Positions 6,820 through 61,681 of a stretch of DNA of 64,000 nt are shown here, piece after piece. A program made the translations under genes and the position numbers. Location: contig OZ241333.1 of assembly GCA_965200085.1 (NCBI GenBank), positions 1,123,704 to 1,187,703 of the forward strand. Reading direction: 5' to 3'. This DNA is from Dehalococcoidia bacterium. GTDB taxonomy: Bacteria; Chloroflexota; Dehalococcoidia; Lucifugimonadales; JADFKI01. The notes beneath the pieces are model-generated. The model searched no databases and was not told the origin of the DNA. It was given only the letters and a program-made list of their open reading frames with translations. Positions within the stretch are counted from its first letter, which is position 1, and the number at the start of each line of letters is the position of its first letter.

Positions 6820-6898
6820 TTCCGAACGATTACCCATTGCGGCTCGCTGTGTTTTCGACAAGCATCTAAAGGCCTGCTTTGCAGTATTCACCTGAGTC

Positions 6899-8263: not shown

Positions 8264-8323
8264 GTGCCGACTTTGCGATTGATTCATGTAGGCACAGGAA
8301 TGACGGAATGAGGGCGCGGCAAT

Positions 8324-12865: not shown

Positions 12866-12938
12866 TAGAAGACGAGATTGATTTTTGACTTCTTGCTTAT
12901 GCGAGAATGACATAGTGAGAGCGCAGGCGAACCGATAA

Positions 12939-37169: not shown

Positions 37170-38357
37170 CTCACGCGTACCCAGTTTAGTACGAGGTATA
37201 GAAAAAGGTCGGATACTCAGGTATAGATATAAGTTGACAAAACTCTGCCTGAGGAGTCCGACCAATGAAATGGTATAACAGCATCAGCACATTTCTCAAC
37301 TGCGCTATCCCCAATATCAGAGCTACCAGAAAAGTTAACCTCGCTCTGTTAACCTGCTCTATCCTCTCTCGCCGCCAACTCTCACTATCCGTACTCGCAA
37401 GAGAACTTGCCCGATCCTCTCTAACCAGAACCAGCTCGCATCACCACAACAAGAAGCGACTGTTCCGCTTCCTGTCCAACCACCGCCTAGATCCCTTTCA
37501 AACACAGACCGCGATGATGCCTCACATCGTCTCAACCGCACGACTCAAAGGTCTCACACCCATAATGATAGACTGGTCTGATCTTGGCAGAGGTTTCAAC
37601 GGACTGTTCGCTGCGGTCTGCTTCAGGAAGAGAGGTCTCCCACTTCTGAGCTGGGTGTCGCGCAGTGAGGAGCTGAATCCCTCTCAAAATCGCCTTGAGG
37701 AGATGTTCATTCGCAGACTGGTAACTCACCTGCCCAACACTGTTCGTCCGCTGATACTTGCTGACAGGGGTTTTGGCAGAGCCAGTCTGCTTCTGTTTAT
37801 ACAGCGCCTCCCTTCTTTCAGTGGATACCCTGTGGACTATGTCATCCGGCTCAAGAAAGATGTGATAGTGCAGAGTGAGGAGTTCAGGTGCAGATTGCGA
37901 GATTACCCTCTGCGGAAGCGGCGCATCGTGTTCGTGCCGGGTGTGAAGTATCGTCAGGATGGCGCAGTGACTACAAACCTCGTGCTGTTCTGGGGAAGCG
38001 GACATAAGAATCCGTGGTATCTGGCGACTTCCTTGTCTGATGCGAGACTTGCTGTGAAGATGTACCGCAAGCGGATGCAGCCTGAACAGTACTTTAGGGA
38101 CGGCAAGCAGCGCTTCTCTCTTGCTTCTACGACCGTTACCACCTCAAGTCGTCTTCAGCGTCTGCTGCTTGGAGTTGTGCTGGCGTGTGTTGTGCTCATT
38201 CTTGTTGGGATGCGTGTATCGCCGTCATTTCGGAAACAAGTCTGTTCCTGGGGCAAACTTGGGGTTTTGCACCTCGGACTGGAATACTACTTTGCATACT
38301 ATGAACCTCCTCCCGACTATCTCGGCATCACTCCTTTCCAAACTGGGTACGTGTGAG
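37170..38357 (+). mobile_element. intact IS4-family insertion sequence (1188 bp)
   Basis: 18-bp terminal inverted repeats CTCACGCGTACCCAGTTT and CTCACACGTACCCAGTTT (17/18 match), a single DDE transposase ORF, and an 11-bp TSD. Confidence 0.85.
37265..38356 (+). CDS. IS4-family DDE transposase
   Basis: D in IMIDWSD, D in LILADRGFG, and the exact Y-x2-R-x3-E-x6-K signature YRKRMQPEQYFRDGK. The stop lies inside the right IR. Confidence 0.85.
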   Translation: MKWYNSISTFLNCAIPNIRATRKVNLALLTCSILSRRQLSLSVLARELARSSLTRTSSHHHNKKRLFRFLSNHRLDPFQTQTAMMPHIVSTARLKGLTPIMIDWSDLGRGFNGLFAAVCFRKRGLPLLSWVSRSEELNPSQNRLEEMFIRRLVTHLPNTVRPLILADRGFGRASLLLFIQRLPSFSGYPVDYVIRLKKDVIVQSEEFRCRLRDYPLRKRRIVFVPGVKYRQDGAVTTNLVLFWGSGHKNPWYLATSLSDARLAVKMYRKRMQPEQYFRDGKQRFSLASTTVTTSSRLQRLLLGVVLACVVLILVGMRVSPSFRKQVCSWGKLGVLHLGLEYYFAYYEPPPDYLGITPFQTGYV

Positions 38358-45054: not shown

Positions 45055-45093
45055 ATGAGTGCAGAAAGGGAAATACACCCTTTCTGCACTCAT
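45055..45093. terminator. bidirectional terminator between aspS and the enoyl-CoA hydratase gene (14-16-bp perfect stem, 7-nt loop)
   Basis: GAGTGCAGAAAGGG-aaataca-CCCTTTCTGCACTC, with T-rich flanks on both strands. Confidence 0.65.
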
Positions 45094-45130: not shown

Positions 45131-45937
45131 TCAGAACGGAGCGTCGCGCGCCTCCAGAAATGCGCGCATTCCCTGCTCCTGCTTTATGATTTCGAGCGCC
45201 TCTTTTTCGGGAACATTGGGCGCCATTGCCTCTATCATACGCAGCATTAGGTGATGCTCAAACGCCTCAGAGAATCCCATCTTCTCATAAGTGCCTTTAA
45301 TGCTTCGCTTCATCATTTGAACGGCATACGGAGGCACATTGGCGATACGCGTGGCAGCCTTGCGGGCATTATCCATCAGTTCGTCCGCCGGCACTACCCA
45401 GTTCACCATGTTCCATTTCTCCGCAGTACGCGCATCCACGGTATCGCCGGTATAGTACAGCCAGTGGAGATGTCGCAGCGGAATCATGAACGGCAGCATA
45501 ATCGCCGGTGAATGTGCCACAAATCTTATCTCCGGCTCGCCGAACGTCGCATTCTCTGCAGCGATTACGATGTCGGCGGTCATCGCCAGCACATTGCCGG
45601 CAGCGAGTGCGTAGCCGTTCACCGCGGCGATGGTCGGCTGCCGCAGGTGCCACAGCTTCATCAGAGTTCGTGCGGGCAGGTGCTTTGAGTCCCAATAAGC
45701 CGTCGCAGGTATATCCGGCGCTTCCTGCCCCGGTGATATGTCGTATCCTGCAGAGAATGCCTTGCCCGCGCCTGTGAGTATCAGCACATTGACATTGTGG
45801 TCGTTATGCACATTGTCCAAGGCGTCGCTGAACTCCGTAAGCAGTTCTGTGCTCAGCGCGTTCATCTTGGCGGGACGATTTAGCGTTAGAGTCGCAATTC
45901 GATCCGACTTTTCCAGTTTGATGAACTCGTAACCCAT
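45131..45937 (-). CDS. enoyl-CoA hydratase/isomerase (crotonase) family protein
   Basis: LTLNRPAKMNAL and GAGKAFSAGYD crotonase motifs. Confidence 0.85.
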   Translation of the reverse strand: MGYEFIKLEKSDRIATLTLNRPAKMNALSTELLTEFSDALDNVHNDHNVNVLILTGAGKAFSAGYDISPGQEAPDIPATAYWDSKHLPARTLMKLWHLRQPTIAAVNGYALAAGNVLAMTADIVIAAENATFGEPEIRFVAHSPAIMLPFMIPLRHLHWLYYTGDTVDARTAEKWNMVNWVVPADELMDNARKAATRIANVPPYAVQMMKRSIKGTYEKMGFSEAFEHHLMLRMIEAMAPNVPEKEALEIIKQEQGMRAFLEARDAPF

Positions 45938-46002
45938 ATAATTCTGTCCTTATCTGACCGTCAACATTTTAACTGTCCCAATCGGATTGAGCGCTAATGG
46001 CG

Positions 46003-47499
46003 CTAGATGCTCGGCAAGGGCACTGTGTCGCCGGTCTCGTGCTGCCAGATTCGGATGCGTGCCGCCATGTCGATAATCCTATCACGCTGCGCCGGATCGT
46101 TGTAAAGGTTGTTCTGCTCATACGGGTCGTTGTTCATGTCAAACAGCTCACACTGGTCTCCTGCACACAGATTAAGCTTCCAGCGGTCAGGCGTAATAAC
46201 TGAACGCCAGGGGAGTGTCAGCATACGGTTGATATCCGAACTGCCCAAGAATCGATCAGGAAGTTCATCACTTGTGCCATTCCACTGCACGAACACATCG
46301 TTGTTATCAAGCGTCTGTTCGCCTTTGAGCACAGGCACGAGGCTCTTACCTTGCAGCGACTCGGGGATGTCATGACCGCTCAGATCCAGCAGTGTAGGCA
46401 CGAGGTCTATATGTCCCACACTGCCATCAACTATCGTTTGCTCCTTTGACAGCCATGGAACGCACATCAGCAAAGGCACTCTCGATGCCTCCTCATAGAA
46501 CGAGCGTTTTTCGAGCATGCCGTGGTCTCCCATCATGTCTCCGTGCTCGCTGGTGAACACCACGACTGTGTTGTCTGCTACCCCGGCATTCTCCAAGGCA
46601 TCCGTTATTCTGCCCACCATGTCGTCGACAAGCGTGATATTCGCAAGATAATGCGCGCGCAGTGTGCGCCAGCCCTCTTCGGTCGTAACATCTTCTCGTG
46701 CGGCGGCATAGCGCGTCATGTAGTCGTCGTCAGAGTGGCTTTTTCCTTCCAGCATGAACTGCATGAAATAGTTGGCGCGTACGCGATTAACTCGCGATGC
46801 GCCTTCGGGCAACTCAAGGAAGGCATCTCCAACGGGAAGCTCTGCCGGGTCGTACATATCCATATAAGGACCGTGATAGGGCGAATGCGGTTCAAAAGTG
46901 CTGACATACAGAATGAAAGGGCGGTCCTTATTCTGTTCTATGAACTCTGCGGCGCTGTCTCCTAAGTAAGACGCCATCTGGAACTCTTTGGGCAGGTCTT
47001 GGCGCGCATCCGCAGAGAACACTTCCAGTCCGTCGGAATGCGAGCTGTCGGGTATGTAGCCGTTCTCAACCAAGTGCTGGTGATACGGTGTCAGCTCATA
47101 GCGCAGTTCCGTGCGCGTGTATGCTTCGCGATGACCATCCTCAGTTGGATTCCACACATCGAACCCGTGCTGAACTTGCACGTCGTTGCCGAGATGCCAC
47201 TTACCCATATACCCCTTGAAGTATTCGTCGTCAATCATCTCAGCAATGACGGGTGTACCCTCAGGCAGGTGAATCTTGTTCACGATAGGACCTGCAGTGT
47301 GCGGGTATAGACCCGTCATAATAGTGGCTCGCGCCGGAGTGCATACCGGCTGGGCTACATACGCGTTGCGGAATACGAAGCTTCGGTCAGCCAGCGCATT
47401 CAGGTTCGGTACATTCATAAACTCACTGCCATAGCAAGCAAGAGTGTCATAACGCTGCTGATCACTCATTATGAATACGATGTTTGGCCTTTCTGCCAT
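46003..47499 (-). CDS. Cys-type sulfatase, no signal peptide
   Basis: PNIVFIMSDQQRYD N-terminus and the formylglycine motif CTPARATIMTGLYPH. Confidence 0.9.
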   Translation of the reverse strand: MAERPNIVFIMSDQQRYDTLACYGSEFMNVPNLNALADRSFVFRNAYVAQPVCTPARATIMTGLYPHTAGPIVNKIHLPEGTPVIAEMIDDEYFKGYMGKWHLGNDVQVQHGFDVWNPTEDGHREAYTRTELRYELTPYHQHLVENGYIPDSSHSDGLEVFSADARQDLPKEFQMASYLGDSAAEFIEQNKDRPFILYVSTFEPHSPYHGPYMDMYDPAELPVGDAFLELPEGASRVNRVRANYFMQFMLEGKSHSDDDYMTRYAAAREDVTTEEGWRTLRAHYLANITLVDDMVGRITDALENAGVADNTVVVFTSEHGDMMGDHGMLEKRSFYEEASRVPLLMCVPWLSKEQTIVDGSVGHIDLVPTLLDLSGHDIPESLQGKSLVPVLKGEQTLDNNDVFVQWNGTSDELPDRFLGSSDINRMLTLPWRSVITPDRWKLNLCAGDQCELFDMNNDPYEQNNLYNDPAQRDRIIDMAARIRIWQHETGDTVPLPSI

Positions 47500-47576
47500 C
47501 CTTTCACCTCCGGTTAACGATAAGTTTGTGCATTGAATTCGCTTGCGTGAGTTTATAAACAGACAGGTAGTATGTC

Positions 47577-47598
47577 AATCCCAACGCAATCCCAACGC
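47577..47598 (+). promoter_or_regulatory. tandem 11-bp direct repeat AATCCCAACGC x2 at the centre of a divergent promoter region
   Basis: Read directly from the sequence. It abuts a minus-strand TTGACA (47578..47573) and covers the -35 position of a plus-strand TGgTAATAT (47607..47615). Confidence 0.4.
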
Positions 47599-47677
47599 AT
47601 TTTGTGTGGTAATATGTGCCAGATAACGAAGCCCGTATGTCTGTGTATTGTCGAAAACATCAGCAGGAATGTTTAAT

Positions 47678-48565
47678 ATGACCACCTCCGGCTTTACCGT
47701 AACGTTGCTTGGCACGAGTTCGCCTTCGCCTTCTATCGAGCGCTTTGGAATGAGTACGCTGGTGGAAGCCGGCGGGGAACGGCTGCTGTTCGACTGCGGA
47801 CGCGGGGCGATTCAGCGGCTGCTCCAGCTTGGGCCGGACTATCCTCAAGTGGACAGACTATTCCTGACGCACTTGCACTCAGATCACATCGTAGGCATAC
47901 CGGATCTATGGCTCACGGCTTGGATTATGGGACGCAAGACGCCGTTTAAGGTCTGGGGACCTGAGGGAACTGTGAATATGATGGCGCACCTTGAGCAGGC
48001 GTACCAAGCGGACATCCATATTCGTAGAGACCTAGACGAGCTTCTTCCGCAATCCGGCATCGACGTCGTCGCGCAAGACATCGCCGAGGGCTTCGAATAC
48101 ACACAGAATGGTGTGCGCGTCATCGTGTTTGATGTTGACCATCGCCCCGTAACGCCCGCGTTTGGCTATCGCATCGAATACGGCGGAAAAACTGTCGTGT
48201 TGTCGGGGGATACCCGTCCCTGCGATAACCTCGTGAAATACGCACAAGGCGCCGATTTACTGATTCACGAAATTATCGCGCCACAGGCTTTTCTGAAGCG
48301 CGCAGCTCGAATGACTGATCATCACAAGCGTGCGGTCATAGAGCACCATACGACGCCTACACAAGCGGGCGAGATTTTCAGCAGAATAAATCCGAAGTTA
48401 GCCGTGTTTTCGCATGTGATTGGAGGTCCCATTCCGGGTTACGAAGCAGAGATACTTGACGGCACTCGCAGTACATACTCCGGACGAGTGGCTGTGGGCT
48501 ACGATCTGACACGCATACAAGTGAGCGAAGAAGTTAAGATACTCAGTGCGCATCCTGATGGCTGA
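47678..48565 (+). CDS. MBL-fold metallo-hydrolase (RNase Z-like subgroup)
   Basis: LTHLHSDH motif. Start moved to ATG 47678 (AGGAA 8 nt upstream). Confidence 0.8.
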   Translation: MTTSGFTVTLLGTSSPSPSIERFGMSTLVEAGGERLLFDCGRGAIQRLLQLGPDYPQVDRLFLTHLHSDHIVGIPDLWLTAWIMGRKTPFKVWGPEGTVNMMAHLEQAYQADIHIRRDLDELLPQSGIDVVAQDIAEGFEYTQNGVRVIVFDVDHRPVTPAFGYRIEYGGKTVVLSGDTRPCDNLVKYAQGADLLIHEIIAPQAFLKRAARMTDHHKRAVIEHHTTPTQAGEIFSRINPKLAVFSHVIGGPIPGYEAEILDGTRSTYSGRVAVGYDLTRIQVSEEVKILSAHPDG

Positions 48566-48610
48566 TCGTAAGCACAGCCTGTTTTAACGTGGATACGTGG
48601 ATAGTATGTT

Positions 48611-50251
48611 TTAAGCGATGTAGTTGTGCAAGCCCAAGGTGCGATATTTGCCTTGCAGTGTGCGCGGGTTGGCGGGCCAGCGCACGACTTGGCATCGAGC
48701 CGCCCACTCTTCGTATAGCCGTGACATCTGCCGTACACGTTCGCTGTCCCCGGATGCTAGGTCATTCAGCTCGGTGCGGTCCTCGTCCATGTTGTACAGC
48801 TCCCACGCCATGCCATACTCGGCAACGAGCTTCCATTCGCCGACGCGCACTGCGCAGTTGCCCTCATGCTCCCAGAATATCGGCTGCTGCCGTTTCCACG
48901 AACTACCTTGCAGTATCGGCAGAAAGCTCTCCCCCTCAATTGGGATGATTTGCCTGCCCTCAAACTCTGAAGGATATGTCGCGCCGGCGGTGTCTATACA
49001 GGTAGCGGTAATGTCAGTGATATACATCGCACTGTGGTTGACGCCTGTCTGTTTTATGCCTTTGGGCCAATGGATGATGAAAGGAGTTGAGATGCCGCCT
49101 TCCTGTATCCAGCTCTTGAACAGGCGGAAAGGCGCGTTGCTCACATTCGCCCACGGCAGGTCGTAGCTCATGAAAGTGTCGTCCGGACCTGGTCTTACGC
49201 CGGGGATGTTGCCCGATGTTACATGTCTGCCATCCACAGTGGGAGTAGAGTATATGCTCGGTACGGGGATGTCGTTGTCCTCTTTGAACAGCTCCGCGCA
49301 CCCTCCATTGTCGGACAGAAACATGAACAGGGTATTGTCGTACTCGCCCAGCTCGCGCAGTTTTGCCATGATGTGTCCGATGCCTTGGTCAACGCGGTCG
49401 ATTTGCGCCGCATAAACGGCCATGCGCAAGTCTTCCCAGTCCTTATGCTGAACATCATTCCAGTCGGGCGCATCCAAGTCGCGTGCGCTGATTTGCCATT
49501 TCTCGTCAAGCAGTCCCATCGCTTTCTGCGACTCATGCCGCGCTGTGCGCTCCGCATCCCAACCCTGACGGAACGCACCTTCATATTTGGCGATGTCCTC
49601 TTCCAGAGCATGCAGTGGCCAATGCGGTGCGGTGTAGGACAGATATAGAAAGAACGGATTGCTCGAGCTGCTGGCTTCGTCAATCATACGAAGGGCGTGA
49701 TTGGTAATTTCTTCAGTCAAGTAGAAATCGGTAGTCTCAGCTTTGATAGGCGTATCATCCAATCCCAGAGAATCGGGGTTAAAGAAGGATGTGTACCCGC
49801 CCCAGATGCCAAAGAATCGGTCGAAGCCACGCTGTCTTGGTGTAGGGTATCCTTCCTCACCTGTTGGCCAGCCGAAATCAGGCACAGGTGGATGATAGTT
49901 GCCGCCTACATGCCATTTGCCGGACATCAGAGTGCGATAACCCGCAGTACGGAGCACTTCCGCTATAGTTACGCACCTATCGTTCAGATAGCCTTGATAG
50001 CTGTCGATGCCGTAATCCGATGTCATGTGCCCAACTCCAGCCTGATGCGGATACAGACCTGTCAGCAGGGCAGCGCGTGATGGGCAGCAGCGCGCGGAGT
50101 TGTACATCTGCGTACATCGGATACCATTCTCCGCAAGTTTGTCTATATTGCGTGTCAGAAGGCGTGAACCGTAGCTTCCGAGGTCCGAGAAGCCGAGGTC
50201 GTCCACAAGGCAGACGATTATATTTGGGCGTTCGATAGACTGCTCACTCAT
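48611..50251 (-). CDS. Cys-type arylsulfatase, no signal peptide (tandem paralog A)
   Basis: PNIIVCLVDDLGFSD and CCPSRAALLTGLYPHQAG. Confidence 0.9.
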   Translation of the reverse strand: MSEQSIERPNIIVCLVDDLGFSDLGSYGSRLLTRNIDKLAENGIRCTQMYNSARCCPSRAALLTGLYPHQAGVGHMTSDYGIDSYQGYLNDRCVTIAEVLRTAGYRTLMSGKWHVGGNYHPPVPDFGWPTGEEGYPTPRQRGFDRFFGIWGGYTSFFNPDSLGLDDTPIKAETTDFYLTEEITNHALRMIDEASSSSNPFFLYLSYTAPHWPLHALEEDIAKYEGAFRQGWDAERTARHESQKAMGLLDEKWQISARDLDAPDWNDVQHKDWEDLRMAVYAAQIDRVDQGIGHIMAKLRELGEYDNTLFMFLSDNGGCAELFKEDNDIPVPSIYSTPTVDGRHVTSGNIPGVRPGPDDTFMSYDLPWANVSNAPFRLFKSWIQEGGISTPFIIHWPKGIKQTGVNHSAMYITDITATCIDTAGATYPSEFEGRQIIPIEGESFLPILQGSSWKRQQPIFWEHEGNCAVRVGEWKLVAEYGMAWELYNMDEDRTELNDLASGDSERVRQMSRLYEEWAARCQVVRWPANPRTLQGKYRTLGLHNYIA

Positions 50252-50306
50252 CCAATACCTCAGCCTATTCTCATCTAATCCGAAGTGGTTCCGTCAGACT
50301 TAAGCG

Positions 50307-51980
50307 TTATTGTTTGTCGTCCATTGGAGTTGGCATAGAAGGCGCGCCTGCGATATGAGCGTTCCTTCCCATCATCCTGAAGCCTGTGAACGCCGGATTC
50401 GCGGGCCAGGGCACAACATTCGCCCTGTCTGCCCACTGCTGCCACATTTGCGCCATCTGCCTAACCCTGTCTGCATCGCCTGCCGCTAGATTGTTAAGCT
50501 CAGTGCGGTCCTCATCCATGTTATAAAGTTCCCATGGGCCGTTGTGCTCGGCAACCAACTTCCATTCGCCTATGCGGACAGCGCGATTGCCTTCGTGTTC
50601 CCAGAATATAGGCGCTTCCCGGCTCCATTGCCTTCCGTAGGCTACCGACAGGAAACTCTCACCCTCAAGCGGCGCTACGCTTCTGTCCGCGTGTTCTGTG
50701 GGATATGCTGCGCCTGCCGCCTCTATACAGGTTGCCGTGATGTCGGATATGTACGCCGGCGAGTTAATGATTGCAGGCTGCTTTATGCGATTGGGCCAAT
50801 GCATGATGAATGGTGTGGATATGCCGCCCTCATGGATCCAGCGCTTAAACAGGCGAAACGGCGTGTTGCTCGCATTTGCCCAAGGCAGATCATAGCTCAT
50901 GAAAGTGTCTGCGCCGCCCGGACGCAGTGAAGGAATGTTTCCTACTCGCGTCTGTCTGCCGTCCACCGTGGGAATGGCGAAGACAGACGGCATGGGAATG
51001 TCAGTATCTTCCATAAACAGCTCAGCATCGCCTCCGTTGTCAGACAGGAACATAAACAGCGTGTTGTCTGCCTGCCCAAGCCGCCTCAGCCGATCCATGA
51101 TTTGTCCGACGCCTTGGTCAACGCGGTCTATCATCGCAGCATACACTGCCATACGCAGGTCTTCCCAATCCTGATTGGGCGCTTCCTGCCAAGGTGGAGC
51201 GTCCACATCGCGAGGGCTTATCTCCCATTTGGAATCTAGCAAGCCCATCCCTTTCATTTCCTCGTGGCGCGCGGTTCGCAGCGCATCCCATCCACCGCGA
51301 TAGATGCTTTCGTACTTGGCTATATCCTCATCCCGCGCGTGCAGCGGCCAGTGGGGAGCGGTGTACGACAAATATAGGAAGAAGGGCTTATCCATATCTG
51401 CGCTCTCATCAATCATCTGAAGCGCGTGGTCAGTAATGGCATCAGTGAAGTAGAAGTCCGGAGTCTCCGCATCGATGGGTGTATCGTCCAGCATCATGGA
51501 GAACGGATTGAACAGCGAGCCGTATCCGCCTAATATACCGAAGAACCTGTCGAACCCGCGCTGACGCGGTGTAGGGCGCCCGGGTGAACCGACGTCCCAG
51601 CCTTCTTCGGGCACTGGCGGGTGGTAGTGGCCGCCCACATGCCACTTGCCGCTCATCAGCGTGCGATAGCCCGATGAGCGCAGAACCTCTGCGACCGTAA
51701 CACATCTATCGTTAAGATAACCTTGATAGCCCGGAGTGCCGTAATTCTGCACCATGTGCCCCACGCCTGCCTGATGAGGGTATAGCCCGGTTAGCAGAGC
51801 CGCTCTCGATGGACAGCAGCGCGCGGCATTGTACATCTGTGTGAAGCGTAACCCGTTGTTGCCCATCCGGTCGAGATTAGGCGTGCTAATCTCAGACCCA
51901 TAGCAGCCGATATCTGAGAAACCAAGGTCGTCCACGAGGCAGACTATGATGTTCGGTCGGGAGTTGGATTGAGTAGGCAT
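50307..51980 (-). CDS. Cys-type arylsulfatase, no signal peptide (tandem paralog B)
   Basis: By eye, identical to 48611..50251 at most positions along the full length. Start moved to MPTQSNSRPN (GGAG-6 nt-ATG at 51980). Confidence 0.9.
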   Translation of the reverse strand: MPTQSNSRPNIIVCLVDDLGFSDIGCYGSEISTPNLDRMGNNGLRFTQMYNAARCCPSRAALLTGLYPHQAGVGHMVQNYGTPGYQGYLNDRCVTVAEVLRSSGYRTLMSGKWHVGGHYHPPVPEEGWDVGSPGRPTPRQRGFDRFFGILGGYGSLFNPFSMMLDDTPIDAETPDFYFTDAITDHALQMIDESADMDKPFFLYLSYTAPHWPLHARDEDIAKYESIYRGGWDALRTARHEEMKGMGLLDSKWEISPRDVDAPPWQEAPNQDWEDLRMAVYAAMIDRVDQGVGQIMDRLRRLGQADNTLFMFLSDNGGDAELFMEDTDIPMPSVFAIPTVDGRQTRVGNIPSLRPGGADTFMSYDLPWANASNTPFRLFKRWIHEGGISTPFIMHWPNRIKQPAIINSPAYISDITATCIEAAGAAYPTEHADRSVAPLEGESFLSVAYGRQWSREAPIFWEHEGNRAVRIGEWKLVAEHNGPWELYNMDEDRTELNNLAAGDADRVRQMAQMWQQWADRANVVPWPANPAFTGFRMMGRNAHIAGAPSMPTPMDDKQ

Positions 51981-52084
51981 AGCAGACTCCAATAGCAGGT
52001 TAGTGGTCAATTCTGGGTAGAAGTTATGCCAAACTATGCTTGTTGTCAATGCCGTATCTAGCTTAGGGATGTGCCAAAATGAAT

Positions 52085-52115
52085 CGGGGACAGACCCACA
52101 AAAGGTCTGTCCCCG
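52085..52115 (-). terminator. hairpin after the NHL gene (12-bp perfect stem CGGGGACAGACC/GGTCTGTCCCCG, 7-nt loop)
   Basis: Read directly from the sequence. The minus-strand tail is ATTCATTTTGG. Confidence 0.5.
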
Positions 52116-52153
52116 GAAGTTGAGCGTGGATTTTTGATTGTTACCGCTGGTTA

Positions 52154-53188
52154 CTACAAGTTGAACTGAGCTTCCATGTAGCCGTTCAGCTTGTTATAAA
52201 TCTGGAGTCTGCCCCGCTGAGTGTCAGCCACAAGCAATCGAGACTTTTTAGTGTCAAATGTAACGGATGTGGGCATCGCAAAGCGCCACTCGGGTTCGAG
52301 TGTATAGACGCGGCGGCGTGCCTTGATTACATCGATGTTTGCATCCACCTGCTCCTGGTGCCACTTGGCGAGCTGCTGTGCATCCCCTCTGAGGCTTGCG
52401 ATGAAACTCCCATCGGGAGCGAAAACCTGAACACGGTCGTTGCCCCAGTCGCACACATACAGATCCCCGTCCGGATCAACGGCAACATCGCTGGGGCGGT
52501 TCAGCTGTCCCCTGCCTTTGCCGTACCTGCCAAAGGACATTAGGTAGTCGCCATCTGAATCGAACTTCTGCACGCGGTGGTTCTTATGGTCGGCGATGTA
52601 CACATTGTCTTGGGCGTCGCAAGTGATGCCCCAAGGCGCATTGAACTCGCCTTCATCGTCGCCGAAGCTGCCGAACTGTAAGATATACTCCCCGTCCTTG
52701 CTGAACTTCTGTACTCGGTGATTTAGACTGTCCACGATATAGGCATCTTCGTTGGAGTCCAGAGCAATGCCGGACGGCTTATTAAGTTCGCCGTCTCCAC
52801 TGCCGCCGGATCCCCACACCTTTAGAAGTTCGCCATCTTTGGTAAACACGGATACCCTGTTCATCCATTCGTCCGTGATGTAAATGTTCTCTTCAGAATC
52901 GAGCGCGATCCCGCTGGGCCAGATGAGCTGGCCTTCGTCGTCGCCGTATCTGCTGAAACGCCCCAAAAACTCCTCATCGCCAGGCGTATCAGTTACTGTG
53001 AACCGATTCACTTGTGCTGCTGTGGCAGTTTTGTTCCAGGGCACATCTAAAATCTGCTCATATTGGCGGCTCAGCACATACACCATGTCGTCTTCCCCGG
53101 AGACTACGCCGATAGGCTGAGGCATGTATAGCCCGCCCACCGCATGGCTGAAGTCGTAAGTGCGTCCTTTCGCTACTGTGGTCAGCAT
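52154..53188 (-). CDS. NHL-repeat beta-propeller protein, no signal peptide
   Basis: Repeated blades containing NHRVQKF, NDRVQVF and MNRVSVF with D.EGNIYV-type strands. Confidence 0.85.
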   Translation of the reverse strand: MLTTVAKGRTYDFSHAVGGLYMPQPIGVVSGEDDMVYVLSRQYEQILDVPWNKTATAAQVNRFTVTDTPGDEEFLGRFSRYGDDEGQLIWPSGIALDSEENIYITDEWMNRVSVFTKDGELLKVWGSGGSGDGELNKPSGIALDSNEDAYIVDSLNHRVQKFSKDGEYILQFGSFGDDEGEFNAPWGITCDAQDNVYIADHKNHRVQKFDSDGDYLMSFGRYGKGRGQLNRPSDVAVDPDGDLYVCDWGNDRVQVFAPDGSFIASLRGDAQQLAKWHQEQVDANIDVIKARRRVYTLEPEWRFAMPTSVTFDTKKSRLLVADTQRGRLQIYNKLNGYMEAQFNL

Positions 53189-53207
53189 ATGTTACACTCC
53201 CCGCTAT

Positions 53208-53275
53208 TCGGTCGGCCAGCGTGCTGGTTTATCATCACAACTGCGATGATATATCCGTGTAGCTGCCGACCGAAA
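53208..53275 (-). other. nested inverted repeats in the DUF1501-NHL intercistronic region
   Basis: Outer 10-bp arms TTCGGTCGGC/GCCGACCGAA enclose an inner hairpin TATCATC-n8-GATGATA (53231..53252). Confidence 0.4.
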
Positions 53276-53285
53276 GACTGACAAA

Positions 53286-54419
53286 TTAATTGGCAATGAA
53301 GCTCATCTTCTCAAAATTACCGCCAACGATTTCCTTAGAATCCATCTTCATCCAGTCTTCGACCAGTGTGGAATAGACACTGCGGAAGTCCACATTGGGT
53401 ACGACGTCGCCCTGTTGGAGGTCTTCGGGGCGAAGCGACGGATACTCGCCATATTGACCGCCCTTCACATTGTCCCCGATGACCATGACTGCGCCGGCAG
53501 CTCCGTGGTCAGTGCCGGAGCCGTTGTCATGCGTCCTGCGTCCGAATTCGGAGAACAGCATCATAACGACATTGTCTGAGGCGTCATGCGCTCGCAAATC
53601 ATCAAAGAAATCATTGATGGCGGTGGAGAGGTCGTCCCAAAGCCCGGCGAGCATGTTCGGCTGACCCGCATGGGAGTCGAAGCTGCCATGGTCGCAGTAG
53701 AAGACGCGAGTTCCGAGATCCGCCATATGTACCTGTGCGATACCCTTAAGTTTCTTCGCCAGCGTGGTATCTGCGTATTCGATGTTGGAGGAGTAGCGCT
53801 CCGGGGCAACTTTGAGAATATCCGCACCTTGCAGAGCGTCCAAGCCTGTCTGTCCGAGGAACTCCATCACCGGACCTCGACCGATAGCCTGACCGTACAG
53901 TCGAGAGAACCTGTTTAGTATCTTCTGCCGCTGCTCATCTGCGCTGATTCCGGGCATCAGACCGTAGTTGTTCAGGTCTTCGACACAGGCTACTGGGACA
54001 CCGGGTACGGCCATTGCGCGAAACATGCTAGGACCGAAGCTGACGCCTGTAACAACATTTTCCTTGCGCGGGTCTATGTTTTGGATAACCTTGCCGAGCC
54101 AGCCTTCCGTGCCCACATCGTCCGGTTCGCAGGTGTGCCAGATGTCCATAGAACGGAAATGAGAGCGCGGCGAGTTTTCGTAGCCCACGCCGTGAACGAT
54201 GGCTACATTGCCCTGATTATACAGGTCGCGTATCGCGCCCATCTGAGGGTGCAGACCAATCTCGTCGTCGAGGTGTAGAACCTGCTCCTGTGGAATGCCG
54301 ACTGTGGGGCGGTTGTCGTAGTAGATTTCATTGTTGTACGGAATCACTGTGTTCAGGTAGTCGTTGCCGCCCGAGAGCTGCACGATAACCAAGACTGGGT
54401 CTTTCTGCACTGTGGTCAT
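53286..54419 (-). CDS. DUF1501 (sulfatase-fold) protein, no TAT signal
   Basis: VIVQLSGGNDYLNT, SEFGRR and GTDHG motifs typical of DUF1501. The N-terminus starts directly in the domain. Confidence 0.85.
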   Translation of the reverse strand: MTTVQKDPVLVIVQLSGGNDYLNTVIPYNNEIYYDNRPTVGIPQEQVLHLDDEIGLHPQMGAIRDLYNQGNVAIVHGVGYENSPRSHFRSMDIWHTCEPDDVGTEGWLGKVIQNIDPRKENVVTGVSFGPSMFRAMAVPGVPVACVEDLNNYGLMPGISADEQRQKILNRFSRLYGQAIGRGPVMEFLGQTGLDALQGADILKVAPERYSSNIEYADTTLAKKLKGIAQVHMADLGTRVFYCDHGSFDSHAGQPNMLAGLWDDLSTAINDFFDDLRAHDASDNVVMMLFSEFGRRTHDNGSGTDHGAAGAVMVIGDNVKGGQYGEYPSLRPEDLQQGDVVPNVDFRSVYSTLVEDWMKMDSKEIVGGNFEKMSFIAN

Positions 54420-54459
54420 CTTAAGTATCCCTCCAATCTATTATCAGGTGTGTGTATGC

Positions 54460-55866
54460 TTATGCGTATTGGTAATCTCTCAGCGATGCGATCAACTGAA
54501 GCATCTCGCTCACACGCATAGTGGAGAATTCAGAGTCTTCGTTAGTTTCCCACTTCAGATCTCCGTCAATTTCTGCGTGGTCTATCAATTCTTGTCGTGT
54601 TGCGCCGTCCAAGTCTAATGGCCCCATCAGGTCGAGGCATGTGTCCACGAACTGATCAGTGGGTATGTCGCCGGCATCCTGAAGTCTAGCGATAATGGAC
54701 TGAACGCCGGGCAGCGATGTGTCGCCCACGAGGTCGGCGACGAAGTTGATGCGGCGCATAAGTGAGCCGCTGTTAATCCATTCGCGTCCGGTGTGCCAGC
54801 CCTCTACGCTTGGCGGGTTCAGCACTTCCTGTCCCATATAGCCCATCTGCCGTCCGAGATTGCCAATACCGGGTGCGGGGAATTCGTGTCCGCCGACGAA
54901 ACGCAGTGTGTTGACCACAACTTCCACCGGGCTTTTGATGCGGGTGAAGCGTGCTTCTTTGAAGAAGTCTGAGTTGAAAAGCACGCGCAGCACTGATCGC
55001 ATGTCGTACTCTGACTCCACAAATGCGTCTGCAAGTATTTGAATGGCTTCAGGGTCGCCCGGGGCTACGCGCTGCCAAGCGGGGACTTGCGCCTCGTCCG
55101 AGACGAAGAAGTTGTACAAGTGGCGCGCGATAAAGCGTGAAGTTGCCGGCTGCTGGCAAATTATATCGATAATCTGCTCGCCATCGAAGTTGCCTGTATA
55201 GCCAAGGAACGACTTCTCTCCATCGTCGTGGTCATCTTCGCGGTACTCGAACGACCAGTCGAAGCGTCCCATCGGGAAGCGCGGCAATTTTGGCGTAATT
55301 GTCCAGCCAGTAAATGCGCGAGAGCATTCAAACACATCCTCTTCGGTGTAGTTGCCCACGCCCATGCTGAATAGCTCGAGCAGCTCGCGTCCCCAGTTCT
55401 CATTGGGCGCATCTGCATGGTTTTCGTTGTTGTCGAGCCAGTAAATCATTGCAGGGTTTTGGGCAATCTCCATCAGGATCTGCTTGTAGCTGCCCATTCC
55501 GTTCTCGCGCAGCATGTCAACCATGTCCTGAATTTCGTCCCAGTGGTCAACCTTTGACACTCCTGTGGCGAAGATACCGTGCCAGAAGACCGCCATCTTC
55601 TCTTGCAGAGGAGCCTTCGTGTTGACCATGTGATACAGCCATGTAGCATGCCCTGTGCCTTGGATCGTGCCGGGCTTCCAAGACCAAGGGTGATACCTAA
55701 GAAGCTCAAATCTGTCCACAGGCTCCTGTGCTTCAGGATGGAGCAGTTCTTCCACAGTTGCTTCGTAACCCTGAGCAACATACTTTTCCAGCTGATCGCG
55801 TGTCGCTCCGAATCCGGCGCGCCGCATCAGATGTGCCATCAATGCAATTTCATCTCGGTGTGCCAT
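54460..55866 (-). CDS. DUF1800 protein, no signal peptide
   Basis: LMRRAGFGAT, HWHGIFAT-type (FWHGIFAT) and NENxAREL-type (NENWGRELLELF) motifs. Start moved to MAHRDE (AGGAGG-7 nt-ATG at 55866). Confidence 0.85.
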   Translation of the reverse strand: MAHRDEIALMAHLMRRAGFGATRDQLEKYVAQGYEATVEELLHPEAQEPVDRFELLRYHPWSWKPGTIQGTGHATWLYHMVNTKAPLQEKMAVFWHGIFATGVSKVDHWDEIQDMVDMLRENGMGSYKQILMEIAQNPAMIYWLDNNENHADAPNENWGRELLELFSMGVGNYTEEDVFECSRAFTGWTITPKLPRFPMGRFDWSFEYREDDHDDGEKSFLGYTGNFDGEQIIDIICQQPATSRFIARHLYNFFVSDEAQVPAWQRVAPGDPEAIQILADAFVESEYDMRSVLRVLFNSDFFKEARFTRIKSPVEVVVNTLRFVGGHEFPAPGIGNLGRQMGYMGQEVLNPPSVEGWHTGREWINSGSLMRRINFVADLVGDTSLPGVQSIIARLQDAGDIPTDQFVDTCLDLMGPLDLDGATRQELIDHAEIDGDLKWETNEDSEFSTMRVSEMLQLIASLRDYQYA

Positions 55867-55914: not shown

Positions 55915-56139
55915 GTTTGAGTTCGACTCTTTACCTAGTAATCGATCAATTGGCAGTAAAGTAATCGCCGCGCAATTTATCATTTTCAGTATATGAAGCG
56001 AGGCACATCGTGTCAAACCCTTTTTCCAACAAACTGACTATAACTAATTCTTATTCTGTACATTGTCGTCATCCACTCATATAATCCTTGTAATCCTTTA
56101 ATCTTCACAGGAGTAACAATACTGGGGAGGTATTGATAA

Positions 56140-57841: not shown

Positions 57842-58744
57842 TTATAGGAAATGCCCTCTCATTCTTGGGTCCAGATAATCACGGAGCGCGTCTCCTATTA
57901 GCACAACTGCGAGAACCGTAAGCGTCAGGAATACTCCGGGGAAGAAGGATATCCAGAAAGCGACCTGTACATATCCTTTGCCTGTCGCGACGATGTTGCC
58001 CCAAGTCGGGATGAACTCCGGCACGCCTGCTCCAAGGAAGCTGAGGCTTGCTTCAGCAAGTATAGCCGTTGCTAGTGTGAAGGTCGCCTGCACCATTACG
58101 ATACCAAAGGTGTTAGGTGCGATGTGCAGCAGCAGAATGCGCCATACCGGAGAGCCGATAGCCCGAGCTGCTTCAACGAACTGCTCCTCGCGCAGACTTA
58201 GCACTTGCCCTCTTACCAGCCGCACTTTGCTTGCGGTGCCCGTTACCGACAGAGCGATGATGACATTGGTTACACTTCCGCCCAGCAATGCTATAAGGGC
58301 GAGTGCAAGCAGTATTGTGGGAAAGGCGAGCAGACCATCTACGAACCGCATTAGGATGTGGTCTAAGATTCTGAAATATCCTGCGAATAGCGCGATTATG
58401 AGGCCAAGAACGACGGATACCACGGTTACTGCAAAGCCTACATAGAGCGAGATCCGACTTCCTGCTATCACCCTGTCGAACACATCTCTTCCGAATGCAT
58501 CAGTGCCGAACCAGTGCTCTGATGACGGCGGCAGTCTCAGATCTGTTGTGGTCTGAGTGTAATCCGAGCGTACTATGACTGGGGAGAACACGGTCATGAG
58601 GAGTATCGCAGAGAGTATCACCACGCCCAACAGCACATTAGGGTTGCTTCGCGTAATGACGAGAAAGGCATTGAGGCTGCGGCGCACGCGGGCGCCCGCG
58701 CTTGGCGCCAGCCTGATAGAAGGCTCTTGCTGCTGTGTGTCCAT
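57842..58744 (-). CDS. ABC transporter permease (DppC/OppC-like)
   Basis: EAA-loop region (SLREEQFVEAARAIGSP) and 6 TM segments. Overlaps the upstream permease gene by 1 nt. Confidence 0.9.
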   Translation of the reverse strand: MDTQQQEPSIRLAPSAGARVRRSLNAFLVITRSNPNVLLGVVILSAILLMTVFSPVIVRSDYTQTTTDLRLPPSSEHWFGTDAFGRDVFDRVIAGSRISLYVGFAVTVVSVVLGLIIALFAGYFRILDHILMRFVDGLLAFPTILLALALIALLGGSVTNVIIALSVTGTASKVRLVRGQVLSLREEQFVEAARAIGSPVWRILLLHIAPNTFGIVMVQATFTLATAILAEASLSFLGAGVPEFIPTWGNIVATGKGYVQVAFWISFFPGVFLTLTVLAVVLIGDALRDYLDPRMRGHFL

Positions 58745-59685
58745 TAGTATCTAATCCTCGGGTCGAGGTAGGCATACGTAATGTCGATGATAAGGTTGAT
58801 CAGCACATACGCGGTAGCCACTACTATCATCAGGGCTTGGATTATGGGAAAGTCCCTACGGATAATCGCTTCTATGAGCATTCTGCCCAGCCCCGGAATC
58901 GCGAAGATAGACTCGGTAACTACAAAGCCGGTAGCCAGGCTTGCGAGCGAGGCGCCTATGACGGTTACGACCGGTATGGATGCAGGGCGGAATGCATGGC
59001 GCATGTACACTATGAGTTCTTGCAGTCCCTTTGCGCGAGCGGTTCGGACATAGTCTTCACGGAGGACATCCAACATCGCGGAGCGGGTAATTCTTGATAT
59101 GAAAGCTGATGACAGGATGCTGTTGACTGCAACCGGCAAGAACATGCTGTGCAAGTGCGGCAACAGCCCATCACCGATAGGTCGGTATCCGAGCGCAGGA
59201 AACCAGCCGAGATTTACGGACAGCACCCAGATTAGAATGAACGCGAGCCAGAAGCCGGGCGCTGAAAAACCTAGCACCGCAAAGAACATAAAGCCGCGAT
59301 CCACAGGCGTTCCTGCCTTCCATGCCGATATGATACCTATGGATACACCGAGCAGTGTGGATAATACGATGACCTGAATGCCCAAGGAAATAGTTGGCTG
59401 CAGGCGCGGAGCCATTAGTTCCGTTATTGATCTTTTGGAGAATATGGAAGTTCCAAGGTCTCCTCGAGCAAGGCGAGAAATCCACCTGACAAACTGTATG
59501 TGGATTGGCTGGTCGGTGCCAAGTTCGCTGCGGATGCGCTGCAAGTCTTCCACTGTAGCTTCATCGCCGCCGATAATCGCTGCGGGGTCGCCAGGGGCGA
59601 TGTGGATTATGGAAAAGGTGATTATCCCGACGACTGCTATGACAGGTATGGCGGACACGATACGAACCAGTGTATATCGCCACAT
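58744..59685 (-). CDS. ABC transporter permease (DppB/OppB-like)
   Basis: YVRTARAKGL motif; 313 aa. Confidence 0.9.
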   Translation of the reverse strand: MWRYTLVRIVSAIPVIAVVGIITFSIIHIAPGDPAAIIGGDEATVEDLQRIRSELGTDQPIHIQFVRWISRLARGDLGTSIFSKRSITELMAPRLQPTISLGIQVIVLSTLLGVSIGIISAWKAGTPVDRGFMFFAVLGFSAPGFWLAFILIWVLSVNLGWFPALGYRPIGDGLLPHLHSMFLPVAVNSILSSAFISRITRSAMLDVLREDYVRTARAKGLQELIVYMRHAFRPASIPVVTVIGASLASLATGFVVTESIFAIPGLGRMLIEAIIRRDFPIIQALMIVVATAYVLINLIIDITYAYLDPRIRY

Positions 59686-59824
59686 CCGCCTAATTACGCT
59701 CCTTCGCCGATAGTTGTTGCAATATGCTGAATGGTAGCGGGTCGCTCAAAAACCATTCGTGGTCGGGGGCAGTTTCGTATATGCCCCCGACCGATTTATC
59801 TACTTGCCAATGTGATGATTAGAC

Positions 59825-61681
59825 TTATTCTATGATCCACTTGTCGAATGGCTTCTGCTGCGCTGATCCACCGTTGACGATTCCTTGAACTTTGGTGCTT
59901 GCCGCCCATCGGCTGAAGAACTCGCCGATTTGCAGGAATATTGCGTCCTCATAGAAGTGCTCATGAAATTCGTTGTTCAGCGCTATCTGCTCTTCCTCCG
60001 TAGTGGCGCGTGCCAGTCGGGAGTATATTTCTCTCTGCTTTTCGGTCGTGTCCTGATAGTTATTAAACCAGGCATCGTACTGAAGCTCAGAGAACAGCAG
60101 GTGCCCGACAGGACCTGACCTTACTGTTACGCCGCTCCATGTGTGGAAGAACTCCCAGTCATCGGGGCGAGCGCGCTGAGAGACCATGGTAGCCCAGTCC
60201 ATGACCTGAAAATCAACATCAAAGCCGAGCGCCGTCAGCACTTCGCGGCTGACCTGCGCTGCGGCGTGCGCGGGCTGTCTATCCGCCGGATCCATAAGGC
60301 GTACATGCGCTCCGGTTACGCCTGCTTCTGCCAGAAGCTGCTTAGCTTCTTCTAAGTTCTGCGCATAGTAGAATCCGTCAGATCCTGATGTGGTTTCCCA
60401 CTTGGTTCCGCACTGGAGCAGAGAAGGGCACAGGCGGGTGAAAGCAGGATCGCCTGTTGCGAGCGTTAATGCCTTCTGATTGTCATAGGCTTTGACCATT
60501 GCCTGCCGCGCCAGCTTGTTATCGAATGGCGGTCGCACATGGTTGAAGTGCCCCAACAACCTGAATGGCGGGTTGTCATAGAGAGAAACTTCCGGGTCTG
60601 CTTCAAGCCTTGAGAGAAGTTCTGCCGGGAATTCCTGGACTATGTGGACTTCACGAGTTTGCAGGGCTGCCACGCGGGTGGTCTGGTCCGGCACTTCGAT
60701 GTACACCATTCTGTCCACATACGCGGTATGCCCGCCCGAAGTTCCGTTCGCAGGGGTCGGATGCGGGCTGTAATCCTCGTATCTCACAGCGCTCCAGCGG
60801 TCTCCTGGGAGCCACTCTTCGAAAATGAAGGGGCCTGTTCCGTTGGGAGGACCTTCCGCAGATTCGTTCGCAGTGTAGTTGTCATACCAGTCAGACGTTA
60901 CGAGGCGCGGGCCAAATCCCTGTGGACCTATGGCGTCAATAACAAGACCGGTGCCCTCTTTAAGGTTCAAGCTAAAGTGCAGGTCGTCTTCAATTGTGAA
61001 AAACTCTTCAAATTCGCCTGAGCCTGCGCCGAACTCATTCCTGACGAGCCTCAGGATTGGGGCACGGTCCTTTTGACGGTTGAGGGTTCCACGCACTTGC
61101 TCTGTAGTCAGGGGAGTTCCGTCGTGGAATTTGATGCCATCTCGGATCCTGAATGTCCACGAGAGATTGTCGTCGCTGCTCTCCCAGCTCTCGATCAGCA
61201 GGGGACCAATTCCGTAGTCGCTCGTGTACTCAAAGAGCCCTTCGAGTATGGTATTGGACACGTTTCCGGTACCTGATGCAGTCGTCCATAGAGGGTCGAA
61301 TGACTGAATGCTGCCCGCTGCCACTATGCGCAGAGTTCCACCATATTGCGCTTCGTCTGAGGAAGCCATCATTGCAGGGCGTCTGGTCTGCTGCTGAGGC
61401 ACAGGTGCGAGTTGCGGCGACTGAGGTGTAGGGAGCGCTTGGACTGCCGCCGGCGCTGCGGGAGCTGCAGGCGCCGGAAGTGCTGGCGCTACGGGCATAG
61501 CGGGCGCTTGTGCTGCGGGAGCCGCGGGCGCTTGTACAGGCGCCGGTGCGACGGCGGGCGCTTGTACAGGCGCCGGTTGCTGCACTGGCGCAGCTGTGGA
61601 ACAGGCAATTGCCCCAACCGCCATTATGGATACTAAAATCAGAAGCAGAGATAATGCCTTACTCCTTGATAATTTCCGCAT
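59825..61681 (-). CDS. ABC transporter substrate-binding lipoprotein (family 5, peptide/nickel type) with an Ala/Pro-rich linker
   Basis: Signal peptide ending ...GAIAC, about 70 aa of an AP(V/Q) low-complexity tether, then an SBP_bac_5-like body. RBS AAGGAG. Confidence 0.9.
   Translation of the reverse strand: MRKLSRSKALSLLLILVSIMAVGAIACSTAAPVQQPAPVQAPAVAPAPVQAPAAPAAQAPAMPVAPALPAPAAPAAPAAVQALPTPQSPQLAPVPQQQTRRPAMMASSDEAQYGGTLRIVAAGSIQSFDPLWTTASGTGNVSNTILEGLFEYTSDYGIGPLLIESWESSDDNLSWTFRIRDGIKFHDGTPLTTEQVRGTLNRQKDRAPILRLVRNEFGAGSGEFEEFFTIEDDLHFSLNLKEGTGLVIDAIGPQGFGPRLVTSDWYDNYTANESAEGPPNGTGPFIFEEWLPGDRWSAVRYEDYSPHPTPANGTSGGHTAYVDRMVYIEVPDQTTRVAALQTREVHIVQEFPAELLSRLEADPEVSLYDNPPFRLLGHFNHVRPPFDNKLARQAMVKAYDNQKALTLATGDPAFTRLCPSLLQCGTKWETTSGSDGFYYAQNLEEAKQLLAEAGVTGAHVRLMDPADRQPAHAAAQVSREVLTALGFDVDFQVMDWATMVSQRARPDDWEFFHTWSGVTVRSGPVGHLLFSELQYDAWFNNYQDTTEKQREIYSRLARATTEEEQIALNNEFHEHFYEDAIFLQIGEFFSRWAASTKVQGIVNGGSAQQKPFDKWIIE

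Follow-up and report, generated by a model that had tools for sequence, protein, structure and literature searches.

Both in the dark ocean and in sponges, the SAR202 clade of Chloroflexota supplies some of the most abundant heterotrophs, to which the degradation of resistant dissolved organic matter is attributed. Expansions of sulfatase paralogues are already known from SAR202 groups I and II (PMC6946804, PMC10444878, PMC5596340). The gene pair DUF1800-DUF1501 is known from published operons which, like the modules that combine DUF1501 with PSCyt domains, have been described as targeted for export along the Tat (twin-arginine translocation) or Sec routes (PMC5122149, PMC3542564); the pair is widespread and has gone unexplained for over a decade. 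Here we describe a locus in which sulfatases and this pair lie side by side, namely eight genes at positions 45,131 to 55,866 of a 64,000-nucleotide stretch of contig OZ241333.1 (the whole of which we call the window), whose host is a SAR202-type Dehalococcoidia (Chloroflexota), probably from a sponge or seawater habitat. The genes encode three sulfatases (S1, S2 and S3), a crotonase of the enoyl-CoA hydratase family (ECH), a hydrolase of the metallo-beta-lactamase (MBL) fold, and a trio made up of a DUF1800 protein, a DUF1501 protein and an NHL-repeat protein. An earlier note on this DNA had read all eight as a single island for intracellular desulfation, to which the trio might contribute accessory components. 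Our analysis favours, with a probability of roughly 0.65, a region of two unrelated things juxtaposed, in which putatively cytoplasmic sulfatases happen to stand beside an independent trio operon.

Synteny of the trio and the sulfatases

Relatives of the locus were taken as the best 80 of more than 590 DUF1501 matches in species-representative genomes (these and further loci are given below as L numbers), with about 21 kb read per locus and the window proteins compared with each by tblastn. With the exception of two labelled Entotheonella, these 80 loci come from Dehalococcoidia/SAR202 metagenome-assembled genomes, many of them named for sponge samples. The three trio genes are adjacent, in the same order and on the same strand, in 73 of the 80 (two of the seven exceptions end at contig edges), with median gaps of 83 nt and 119 nt. 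The flanks of the trio vary from locus to locus, and clustering of its neighbours returned typical SAR202 catabolic genes only, with no common theme. Within approximately 10 kb of a trio we found five sulfatase open reading frames (ORFs), confined to four of the 80 loci, and the trios of the other 76 loci have no sulfatase at all. The cultured SAR202 strain JH545 carries 18 sulfatases in a genome of 3.1 Mb (PMC10444878), a density at which chance alone would place about ten in the DNA of the 80 loci; sulfatases are therefore not enriched near trios. The sulfatase lineages likewise occur without the trio, in six of the seven S1 orthologue contexts that we read in other genomes and in all of the approximately 20 S2-like contexts.

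The full eight-gene set was found only on contigs of the same species and, with insertions, in two close relatives (L001 and L096), and it is absent from L002 and the other 78 trio loci. In L002, whose DUF1501 is 95% identical to that of the window, the NHL gene is followed by unrelated genes and no sulfatase is present, and in L001 the run is interrupted by a second NHL paralogue and by a gene for a secreted LRR/fn3 protein between S3 and S2.

On these data it is very unlikely that the eight genes make up a single pathway of intracellular desulfation to which the trio contributes accessory components, for example for maturation, substrate delivery or the formation of a complex. The window and the two close relatives do have these genes side by side and in one orientation, the DUF1501 model points to a sulfatase-superfamily fold (see below), and in one distant locus, L090, a trio lies 3.5 kb upstream of a gene for a formylglycine-generating enzyme (FGE) followed by an S1 orthologue; set against this are the many trios without sulfatases and sulfatases without trios, a terminator-like hairpin between NHL and S3, and the arrangements in L002 and L001. 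Synteny has already largely refuted such a pathway, and the conserved island of the earlier note shrinks to one species and two near relatives, the accessory role that it suggested for the trio is not supported, and in the 80 loci DUF1800/DUF1501 showed no co-occurrence with sulfatases beyond background. Adjacency in a single genome is a reason for caution before a pathway is proposed.

The gene order in L090 (L090:1-7491) runs DUF1800-DUF1501-NHL, a GFO/IDH/MocA oxidoreductase, a peptidase S51, FGE and the S1 orthologue, and it is the only distant case of a trio near an S1-type sulfatase.

The region reads as four putative transcription units, [DUF1800-DUF1501-NHL], [S3-S2], [MBL] and [S1-ECH], and the positions of the candidate promoters and terminators (Table 1) agree with the synteny. 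Relatives, too, have TTGACA-type words upstream of DUF1800. Known RNA elements, including riboswitches in the 5' regions, gave no Rfam match in the region. The gene positions and families given for all eight genes in the earlier note were borne out by longest ORFs and Pfam scans, as was its minus-strand run from DUF1800 to S2 (48,611-55,866), which measures 7.26 kb where the note had 7.3 kb.

Table 1. Genes and putative transcription signals of the eight-gene region, in window coordinates.
Feature	Position	Strand	Remarks
Bidirectional terminator-like hairpin, ECH versus convergent aspartyl-tRNA synthetase gene	45055..45093	.	16-bp stem
Crotonase/enoyl-CoA hydratase family (ECH)	45131..45937	-	268 aa; PF00378 (ECH_1) 169 bits
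Sulfatase S1	46003..47499	-	498 aa; PF00884 171 bits, plus SGSH_C; Cys-type CTPAR
Promoter-like TTGACA-17-TAAACT upstream of S1	47550..47578	-	10/12; consensus match only
MBL-fold hydrolase, RNase Z/Lactamase_B_2 type	47678..48565 (47648 also listed as start)	+	295 aa; PF12706 78 bits
Sulfatase S2	48611..50251	-	546 aa; PF00884 194 bits; Cys-type CCPSR
Sulfatase S3	50307..51980	-	557 aa; PF00884 190 bits; Cys-type CCPSR
Terminator-like hairpin, NHL stop to S3 start	52085..52115	-	13-bp stem, 9 G-C pairs, T-rich tail
NHL-repeat beta-propeller protein	52154..53188	-	344 aa; PF01436 137 bits; trio gene 3
DUF1501 protein	53286..54419	-	377 aa; PF07394 88.6 bits
DUF1800 protein	54460..55866	-	468 aa; PF08811 346 bits; trio gene 1
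Promoter-like TTGACA-17-TATACT upstream of DUF1800	55988..56016	-	Best scan match, 11/12; consensus match only

Predicted location and substrates of the sulfatases

Each ORF was taken to begin at the first start codon that follows a stop, hence with the longest possible N-terminus, and leaders were sought by 10-residue Kyte-Doolittle hydropathy and inspection for motifs, with the exported and membrane proteins of the window as positive controls. The maximum hydropathy in the first 60 residues was at most 2.04 for all eight proteins, against 3.0-3.35 for the controls (Amt, an fn3 protein, RNase Y, two permeases and an SBP5 lipoprotein). No upstream extension is possible for S1 (N-terminus MAERPNIVF...), S2 (N-terminus MSEQSIERPNIIV...), NHL or DUF1501, since stops upstream exclude longer reading frames. 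DUF1501 begins 40 nt past the DUF1800 stop, which leaves no room for a leader, and its first strand lies nine residues in, with neither an RR motif nor a hydrophobic stretch, as is also the case in the 80 loci and in its 120 best homologues. The sole possible extensions start at TTG codons, at 52,049 for S3 and at 56,016 for DUF1800. Every ATG start is preceded by a Shine-Dalgarno motif, which reads AGGAGG before the DUF1800 ATG at 55,866, where it is kept in relatives, and GGAG before the S3 ATG at 51,980. An identical S2 protein is encoded on 18 public contigs of the same species, and for each of the eight genes the independent gene calls made there agree in length.

Three candidate signals were rejected in the course of this inspection. 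Both TTG codons lack a Shine-Dalgarno motif and the extensions that they would add are neither hydrophobic nor Tat-like, and the one at 56,016 also forms the -35 hexamer of the region's best promoter-like site. The RR of HLMRRAGFGAT, in the N-terminus of DUF1800, marks the beginning of the Pfam domain rather than a Tat motif; charged residues follow it, and it is kept in every homologue.

The notion that the leaderless appearance is an artefact of wrong starts, frameshifts or pseudogenes could appeal to the two in-frame TTG codons, but it is already refuted for practical purposes by the character of the extensions, the upstream stops, the identical gene structures on the 18 independent contigs and the start positions kept in homologues. 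The claim that the three sulfatases, NHL, DUF1501 and DUF1800 lack N-terminal export signals stands, and when starts are moved as far upstream as the frames permit, all eight proteins are still leaderless. We infer that the eight proteins are cytoplasmic. SAR202 cells are described as monoderm (PMC10444878), and a cytoplasmic site would fit a cell without a periplasm.

As previously noted for this DNA, all three sulfatases carry the Cys-type motif C-x-P-x-R, which we read directly in the sequences; its C53, P55 and R57 are invariant in sulfatase alignment A3, and the PF00884 scores compare with a gathering cut-off of 25 bits. By sequence, S1 is nearest to the branch of choline sulfatases and phosphonate monoester hydrolases (PMHs), with PDB matches from 2.9e-48 to 6e-38 that include 4UPI (2.9e-48), the choline sulfatases 7OZ8 and 6FNY, and the PMH 2VQR. 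It stays below every NCBIfam equivalog cut-off, including that for choline sulfatase (TIGR03417; 213 bits versus 433, with S2 and S3 at 108-115 bits). The best 120 S1 homologues, at 63-90% identity and a length of approximately 495 aa, start with M-x-x-R-P-N-(I/L)-V-F and are leaderless without exception (120/120).

Of the seven S1 contexts, three (L089, L092 and L095) have an SBP_bac_5-permease-permease set, with or without ATPases, directly upstream of the S1 orthologue and on the same strand, and two of these three importer contexts contain a second S1-type sulfatase. Another two (L090 and L094) have an FGE gene immediately upstream, the products of which score 266-273 bits with PF03781 and have no hydrophobic N-terminus. 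Because S1 orthologues stand directly behind ATP-binding cassette (ABC) importers or leaderless FGEs, import followed by intracellular desulfation is well supported by comparison, and the sulfatases of the window most probably work in the cytoplasm, on organosulfates that the cell takes up. The three formylglycine-dependent Cys-type sulfatases, belonging to two lineages (S1, and S2/S3), would stay in the cytoplasm, where their catalytic Cys would be converted to formylglycine by a cytosolic FGE whose gene lies at another place in the genome. Small sulfated organic compounds would be imported via ABC or major facilitator superfamily transporters encoded here or elsewhere, and the sulfate ester would be cleaved inside the cell so that the carbon skeleton could pass into catabolism. 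The direction of this pathway, like the activity of the trio and the formation of a complex by it, is one that we infer. Given the leaderless lineages and the importers and FGE beside S1 orthologues, the sulfatase half of the earlier proposal, intracellular desulfation of imported organosulfates by all three enzymes, is the reading best supported; the inclusion of DUF1800, DUF1501 and NHL in that pathway is not supported.

No FGE or radical-SAM/SPASM maturase was found in the 64-kb window by Pfam scans of ORFs of at least 90 aa or by six-frame tblastn with the FGEs of two relatives, in agreement with the earlier observation that neither FGE nor anSME is present. Because leaderless FGEs and importers adjoin S1 orthologues elsewhere, the missing gene is uninformative rather than puzzling.

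An alternative for S1, and possibly for the other sulfatases, is a main activity as phosphonate monoester or phosphodiester hydrolase in phosphorus acquisition. S1 does lie near PMHs (2VQR, 2W8S and 4UPK, from 1e-36 to 6e-38) and scores 199 bits with the NCBIfam model PehA, but the cut-off of that model is 900, all equivalogs are missed, and the top matches are the arylsulfatase-type 4UPI and the choline sulfatases, and we regard the alternative as unlikely. PMHs also use formylglycine, so the pairing of FGE with S1 does not discriminate between sulfate and phosphonate chemistry.

The neighbours of S1 in the window were examined for conserved pairings. The crotonase gene is co-directional with S1 across a 65-nt gap, and its product falls below every NCBIfam equivalog cut-off; the S1-ECH pair is kept in close relatives only, and where ECH genes occur near other S1 orthologues their identity is 27%. 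The MBL gene stands alone as a transcription unit and is convergent with S2, and its product (295 aa in an independent gene call) lies far below the NCBIfam cut-offs (GntH 188 bits, RNase Z 184 bits). A class III alkylsulfatase of the SdsA1 type, of about 650 aa with dimerisation and SCP2-like domains, was rejected for this protein on account of its length and its matches to Lactamase_B_2 and Lactamase_B only. In one orthologue context (L091) S1 is directly followed by an MBL gene, which is of another MBL subfamily (tblastn E 0.003) and unrelated, so that MBL-S1 was dismissed as a conserved pair. At 57,842-61,681 the window also encodes an SBP_bac_5 lipoprotein and two permeases, with no ATPase genes adjoining, a layout also seen beside the S1 orthologues of L089 and L095, the proteins of which are not orthologous to those of the window. 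This transporter was rejected as an orthologue of the S1-linked importers, the binding proteins being only 21-27% identical.

S2 and S3 are tandem paralogs, as had been noted, with 70% identity to each other. Their nearest PDB entry is 7ALL (6.6e-95), and the arylsulfatase of Pseudomonas aeruginosa (1HDH) matches over its full length at 9.4e-77 (query 7-517 to chain 3-521). Full-length homology to 1HDH together with the leaderless architecture marks the pair as AtsA-like, with arylsulfatase activity as a prediction only. Among the 136 closest S2/S3 cluster representatives with an alignable N-terminus, 123 are extended by 18 residues or more that include a hydrophobic core, and 13 are short. 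Of the approximately 20 metagenomic relatives at 52-63% identity, none has a leader even when the longest ORF is read, and relatives at 45% identity or less, from gut metagenomes, have clear signal peptides, so that S2 and S3 are best placed by sequence in a leaderless clade inside a mostly exported subfamily. The neighbours of leaderless S2-like genes vary, from a GH39 gene with a radical-SAM/SPASM maturase-like gene (L112), to an enolase-family enzyme, a second sulfatase and SBP5 (L105), a sugar-type solute-binding protein (L099), TauD (L100) or DUF2961 (L104). The secreted LRR/fn3 protein that splits the tandem pair in L001 (L001:15949-17370) has a clear signal peptide and a His/Asp/Glu-rich linker.

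The P. aeruginosa arylsulfatase belongs to the sulfate-starvation regulon, and the likeness of S2 and S3 to it raises the question of whether the sulfatases might serve sulfur scavenging of this kind rather than carbon catabolism. We consider this highly improbable: relatives come from seawater and sponges, and sulfate is abundant in seawater; the neighbours in relatives are catabolic enzymes and importers; and Pfam scans found no sulfate-starvation genes nearby in the window.

Export without an N-terminal signal, by Tat hitch-hiking, by a C-terminal or internal signal or in vesicles, would move desulfation to the cell surface or outside the cell. The 123 exported S2/S3 representatives, the Tat motifs usual in published DUF1501 proteins (PMC5122149, PMC3542564) and the presence of DUF1800 in an Entotheonella intracellular vesicle fraction (PMC12981691) could be read in this way, but none of the units encodes a partner with a signal peptide, the leaderless state is kept over hundreds of homologues and whole clades, importers and leaderless FGEs adjoin S1 orthologues, and the well-studied leaderless relative 1HDH aligns from residue 3. 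Such export is very improbable, and we retain the cytoplasm as the predicted site of the sulfatases.

The trio proteins and the rest of the window

DUF1501 and DUF1800 match their Pfam families over positions 4-343 of 390 (PF07394; cut-off 27 bits) and over the full profile (PF08811; cut-off 26.1 bits), respectively. The NHL protein matches PF01436 in four stretches and NHL propellers in the PDB down to 4.6e-65, as a six-bladed propeller, and reaches 203 bits with the model for ScyF, an NHL protein of scytonemin biosynthesis (NF035926), versus a cut-off of 350. No solved relative of DUF1501 or DUF1800 was found by sequence. An AlphaFold (AF2) model of DUF1501 (predicted local distance difference test, pLDDT, 72; predicted template modelling score, pTM, 0.81) matched sulfatases, LtaS, YejM and cofactor-independent phosphoglycerate mutase (iPGM) in Foldseek at E 6e-7 to 1e-4, with TM scores of only about 0.4, and profile-profile comparison with sulfatases gave a local match only (37 columns, E 0.017) over the strand-helix around SEFGR/SEHGD. 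These comparisons make DUF1501 a candidate for a very distant fold of the alkaline-phosphatase/sulfatase superfamily. The invariant residues of DUF1501 (D20, S83/S86, H87, D243, D248, H250, D304 and H305) are compatible with that fold and with a metal-dependent hydrolase. The DUF1800 model (pLDDT 75, pTM 0.81) consists mainly of helices, plus a small beta insertion, and its fold search returned no significant PDB match.

None of the three trio proteins has an N-terminal hydrophobic stretch in any of the 80 loci, longest ORFs included. Cluster searches with DUF1501 and DUF1800 each returned at least 8,000 clusters, and in the best 120 listed, which were those examined, DUF1501 is about 376 aa long (nearly all 375-384) and DUF1800 about 467 aa (almost all 464-470). 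Several genomes have two or more trios. The Entotheonella copies (L060, L078; P0169) are leaderless and 63-73% identical to those of SAR202, a likeness that suggests transfer between sponge symbionts. Two DUF1800 proteins are among the most abundant in the Entotheonella intracellular vesicle fraction (PMC12981691), which shows high expression and not function.

Three further observations concern the composition of the trio. Two complete or partial trios, approximately 53% identical to each other, lie within 21 kb in L043 (L043:8524-20165), L064 and L072; the second copy of L043, at 53% identity, is likewise leaderless, and such pairs show old duplications of the whole operon. An ORF of about 110 aa follows NHL in at least 22 of the 80 trio loci (e.g. 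L005:12654-12980 and L050:12372-12704); it matches no Pfam family, is absent from the window, and may be a fourth component of the trio. A second NHL paralogue, 66-69% identical, stands directly behind the first in L001 (L001:12091-13119) and L096 (L096:~4605), where the window has one.

The trio is a separate and strongly conserved operon, often in multiple copies and predicted to be cytoplasmic, in which DUF1501 is the probable catalytic subunit; it would be a metalloenzyme very distantly related to the alkaline-phosphatase/sulfatase superfamily, and would likely work with the helical DUF1800 and the NHL beta-propeller on an ester or related substrate. A more specific proposal, which we put forward only tentatively and hold to be possible rather than probable, is that the three form a cytoplasmic enzyme complex around an unrecognised branch of the alkaline-phosphatase/sulfatase superfamily, a hallmark catabolic module for one class of imported ester-type dissolved organics that was multiplied in SAR202 and is shared with Entotheonella; its leaderless state would then reflect a change of location from the DUF1501 systems that diderms export by Tat.

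Several points weigh against the picture of cytoplasmic sulfatases beside an independent trio. The location of the proteins is taken from hydropathy and inspection of motifs, and the promoter and terminator sites are consensus matches, the totals of which are no higher than in shuffled controls. No FGE was seen in the window, although its absence there says nothing of the rest of the genome, and the window's SBP5 binding protein has the low identity given above to those beside S1 orthologues. The DUF1501 and DUF1800 models are of moderate confidence, and for DUF1501 the loop that would hold the active site came out poorly. In addition to the S1 orthologue of L090, S1-like genes lie 6-8 kb from trios in L023 and L038, and with samples this small a loose association between trio and S1 is conceivable.

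Elsewhere in the window, a luciferase-like monooxygenase, CoA-transferases, thiolase-like genes and RNase Y are compatible with the Dehalococcoidia/SAR202 clade. In a nitrogen-assimilation cluster (3,722-14,408), genes for an ammonium transporter and for both the large and the small subunit of glutamate synthase accompany a full glutamine synthetase gene and a short glutamine-synthetase-like one. A protein of 1195 aa (25,218-28,805) has zinc ribbons at its N-terminus, a PA14 domain at its C-terminus and, in addition, a PMT_2 glycosyltransferase-like membrane domain. The next gene (28,814-31,156) encodes a 780-aa protein with two CoA_transf_3 stretches, apparently a fused family III CoA-transferase, and adjoins genes for an alpha/beta hydrolase and a luciferase-like monooxygenase. 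An IS4-type DDE transposase gene (37,265-38,356) lies directly upstream of the RNase Y gene with a 4-nt overlap, and the RNase Y frame beside it is apparently extended at its N-terminus.

Comparison with known systems

For the sulfatases the comparison yields nothing new in kind, as cytoplasmic Cys-type sulfatases and SAR202 expansions are already known. S2 and S3 resemble P. aeruginosa AtsA (1HDH) in their full-length alignment, Cys-type site and leaderless architecture, the domain beginning only a few residues in, but the similarity is moderate, the genes stand in tandem in a marine Chloroflexota with no sulfate-starvation context, and most of their close relatives are exported. S1 shares its Cys-type site and lack of a leader with the BetC/arylsulfatase/PMH branch (6FNY, 7OZ8, 4UPI and 2VQR), and its relatives stand behind ABC importers, as expected for small imported substrates; it differs from BetC in missing the choline-sulfatase cut-off and in having a crotonase gene as neighbour where no betaine-pathway genes adjoin. 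Like the polysaccharide utilisation loci of Bacteroidota and the PVC group, the region clusters sulfatases with hydrolases and transporters, but the sulfatases of those loci are periplasmic or surface enzymes with signal peptides, whereas those described here are leaderless and the window has no SusC/D or glycoside hydrolase genes. The reports on SAR202 sulfatases (PMC6946804, PMC10444878, PMC5596340) concern the same clade, with several COG3119-type sulfatases per genome, and their available portions do not address localisation, maturation genes or neighbourhoods. Apparently cytoplasmic and apparently coupled to ABC importers and cytosolic FGE, the SAR202 sulfatases point to small imported organosulfates as substrates rather than to extracellular sulfated polymers.

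The trio is the more interesting lead. Leaderless and with a fixed beta-propeller partner, it is a tractable entry to the function of the DUF1800-DUF1501 pair, because cytoplasmic proteins are easy to express and export is unnecessary. The two-gene operons of Proteobacteria (PMC5122149, PMC3542564) contain the same Pfam pair in the same order, adjacent and co-transcribed, and the DUF1501-PSCyt/PSD1 modules of Planctomycetes and Verrucomicrobia (PMC5122149, PMC3542564) can be compared as a related module. The trio differs from these published DUF1501 modules in being leaderless, in the window and in 80 relatives, in its fixed third gene for an NHL protein, in its multiple copies and in its occurrence in a monoderm lineage, and in this leaderless, NHL-linked form it appears to be new to the searchable literature.

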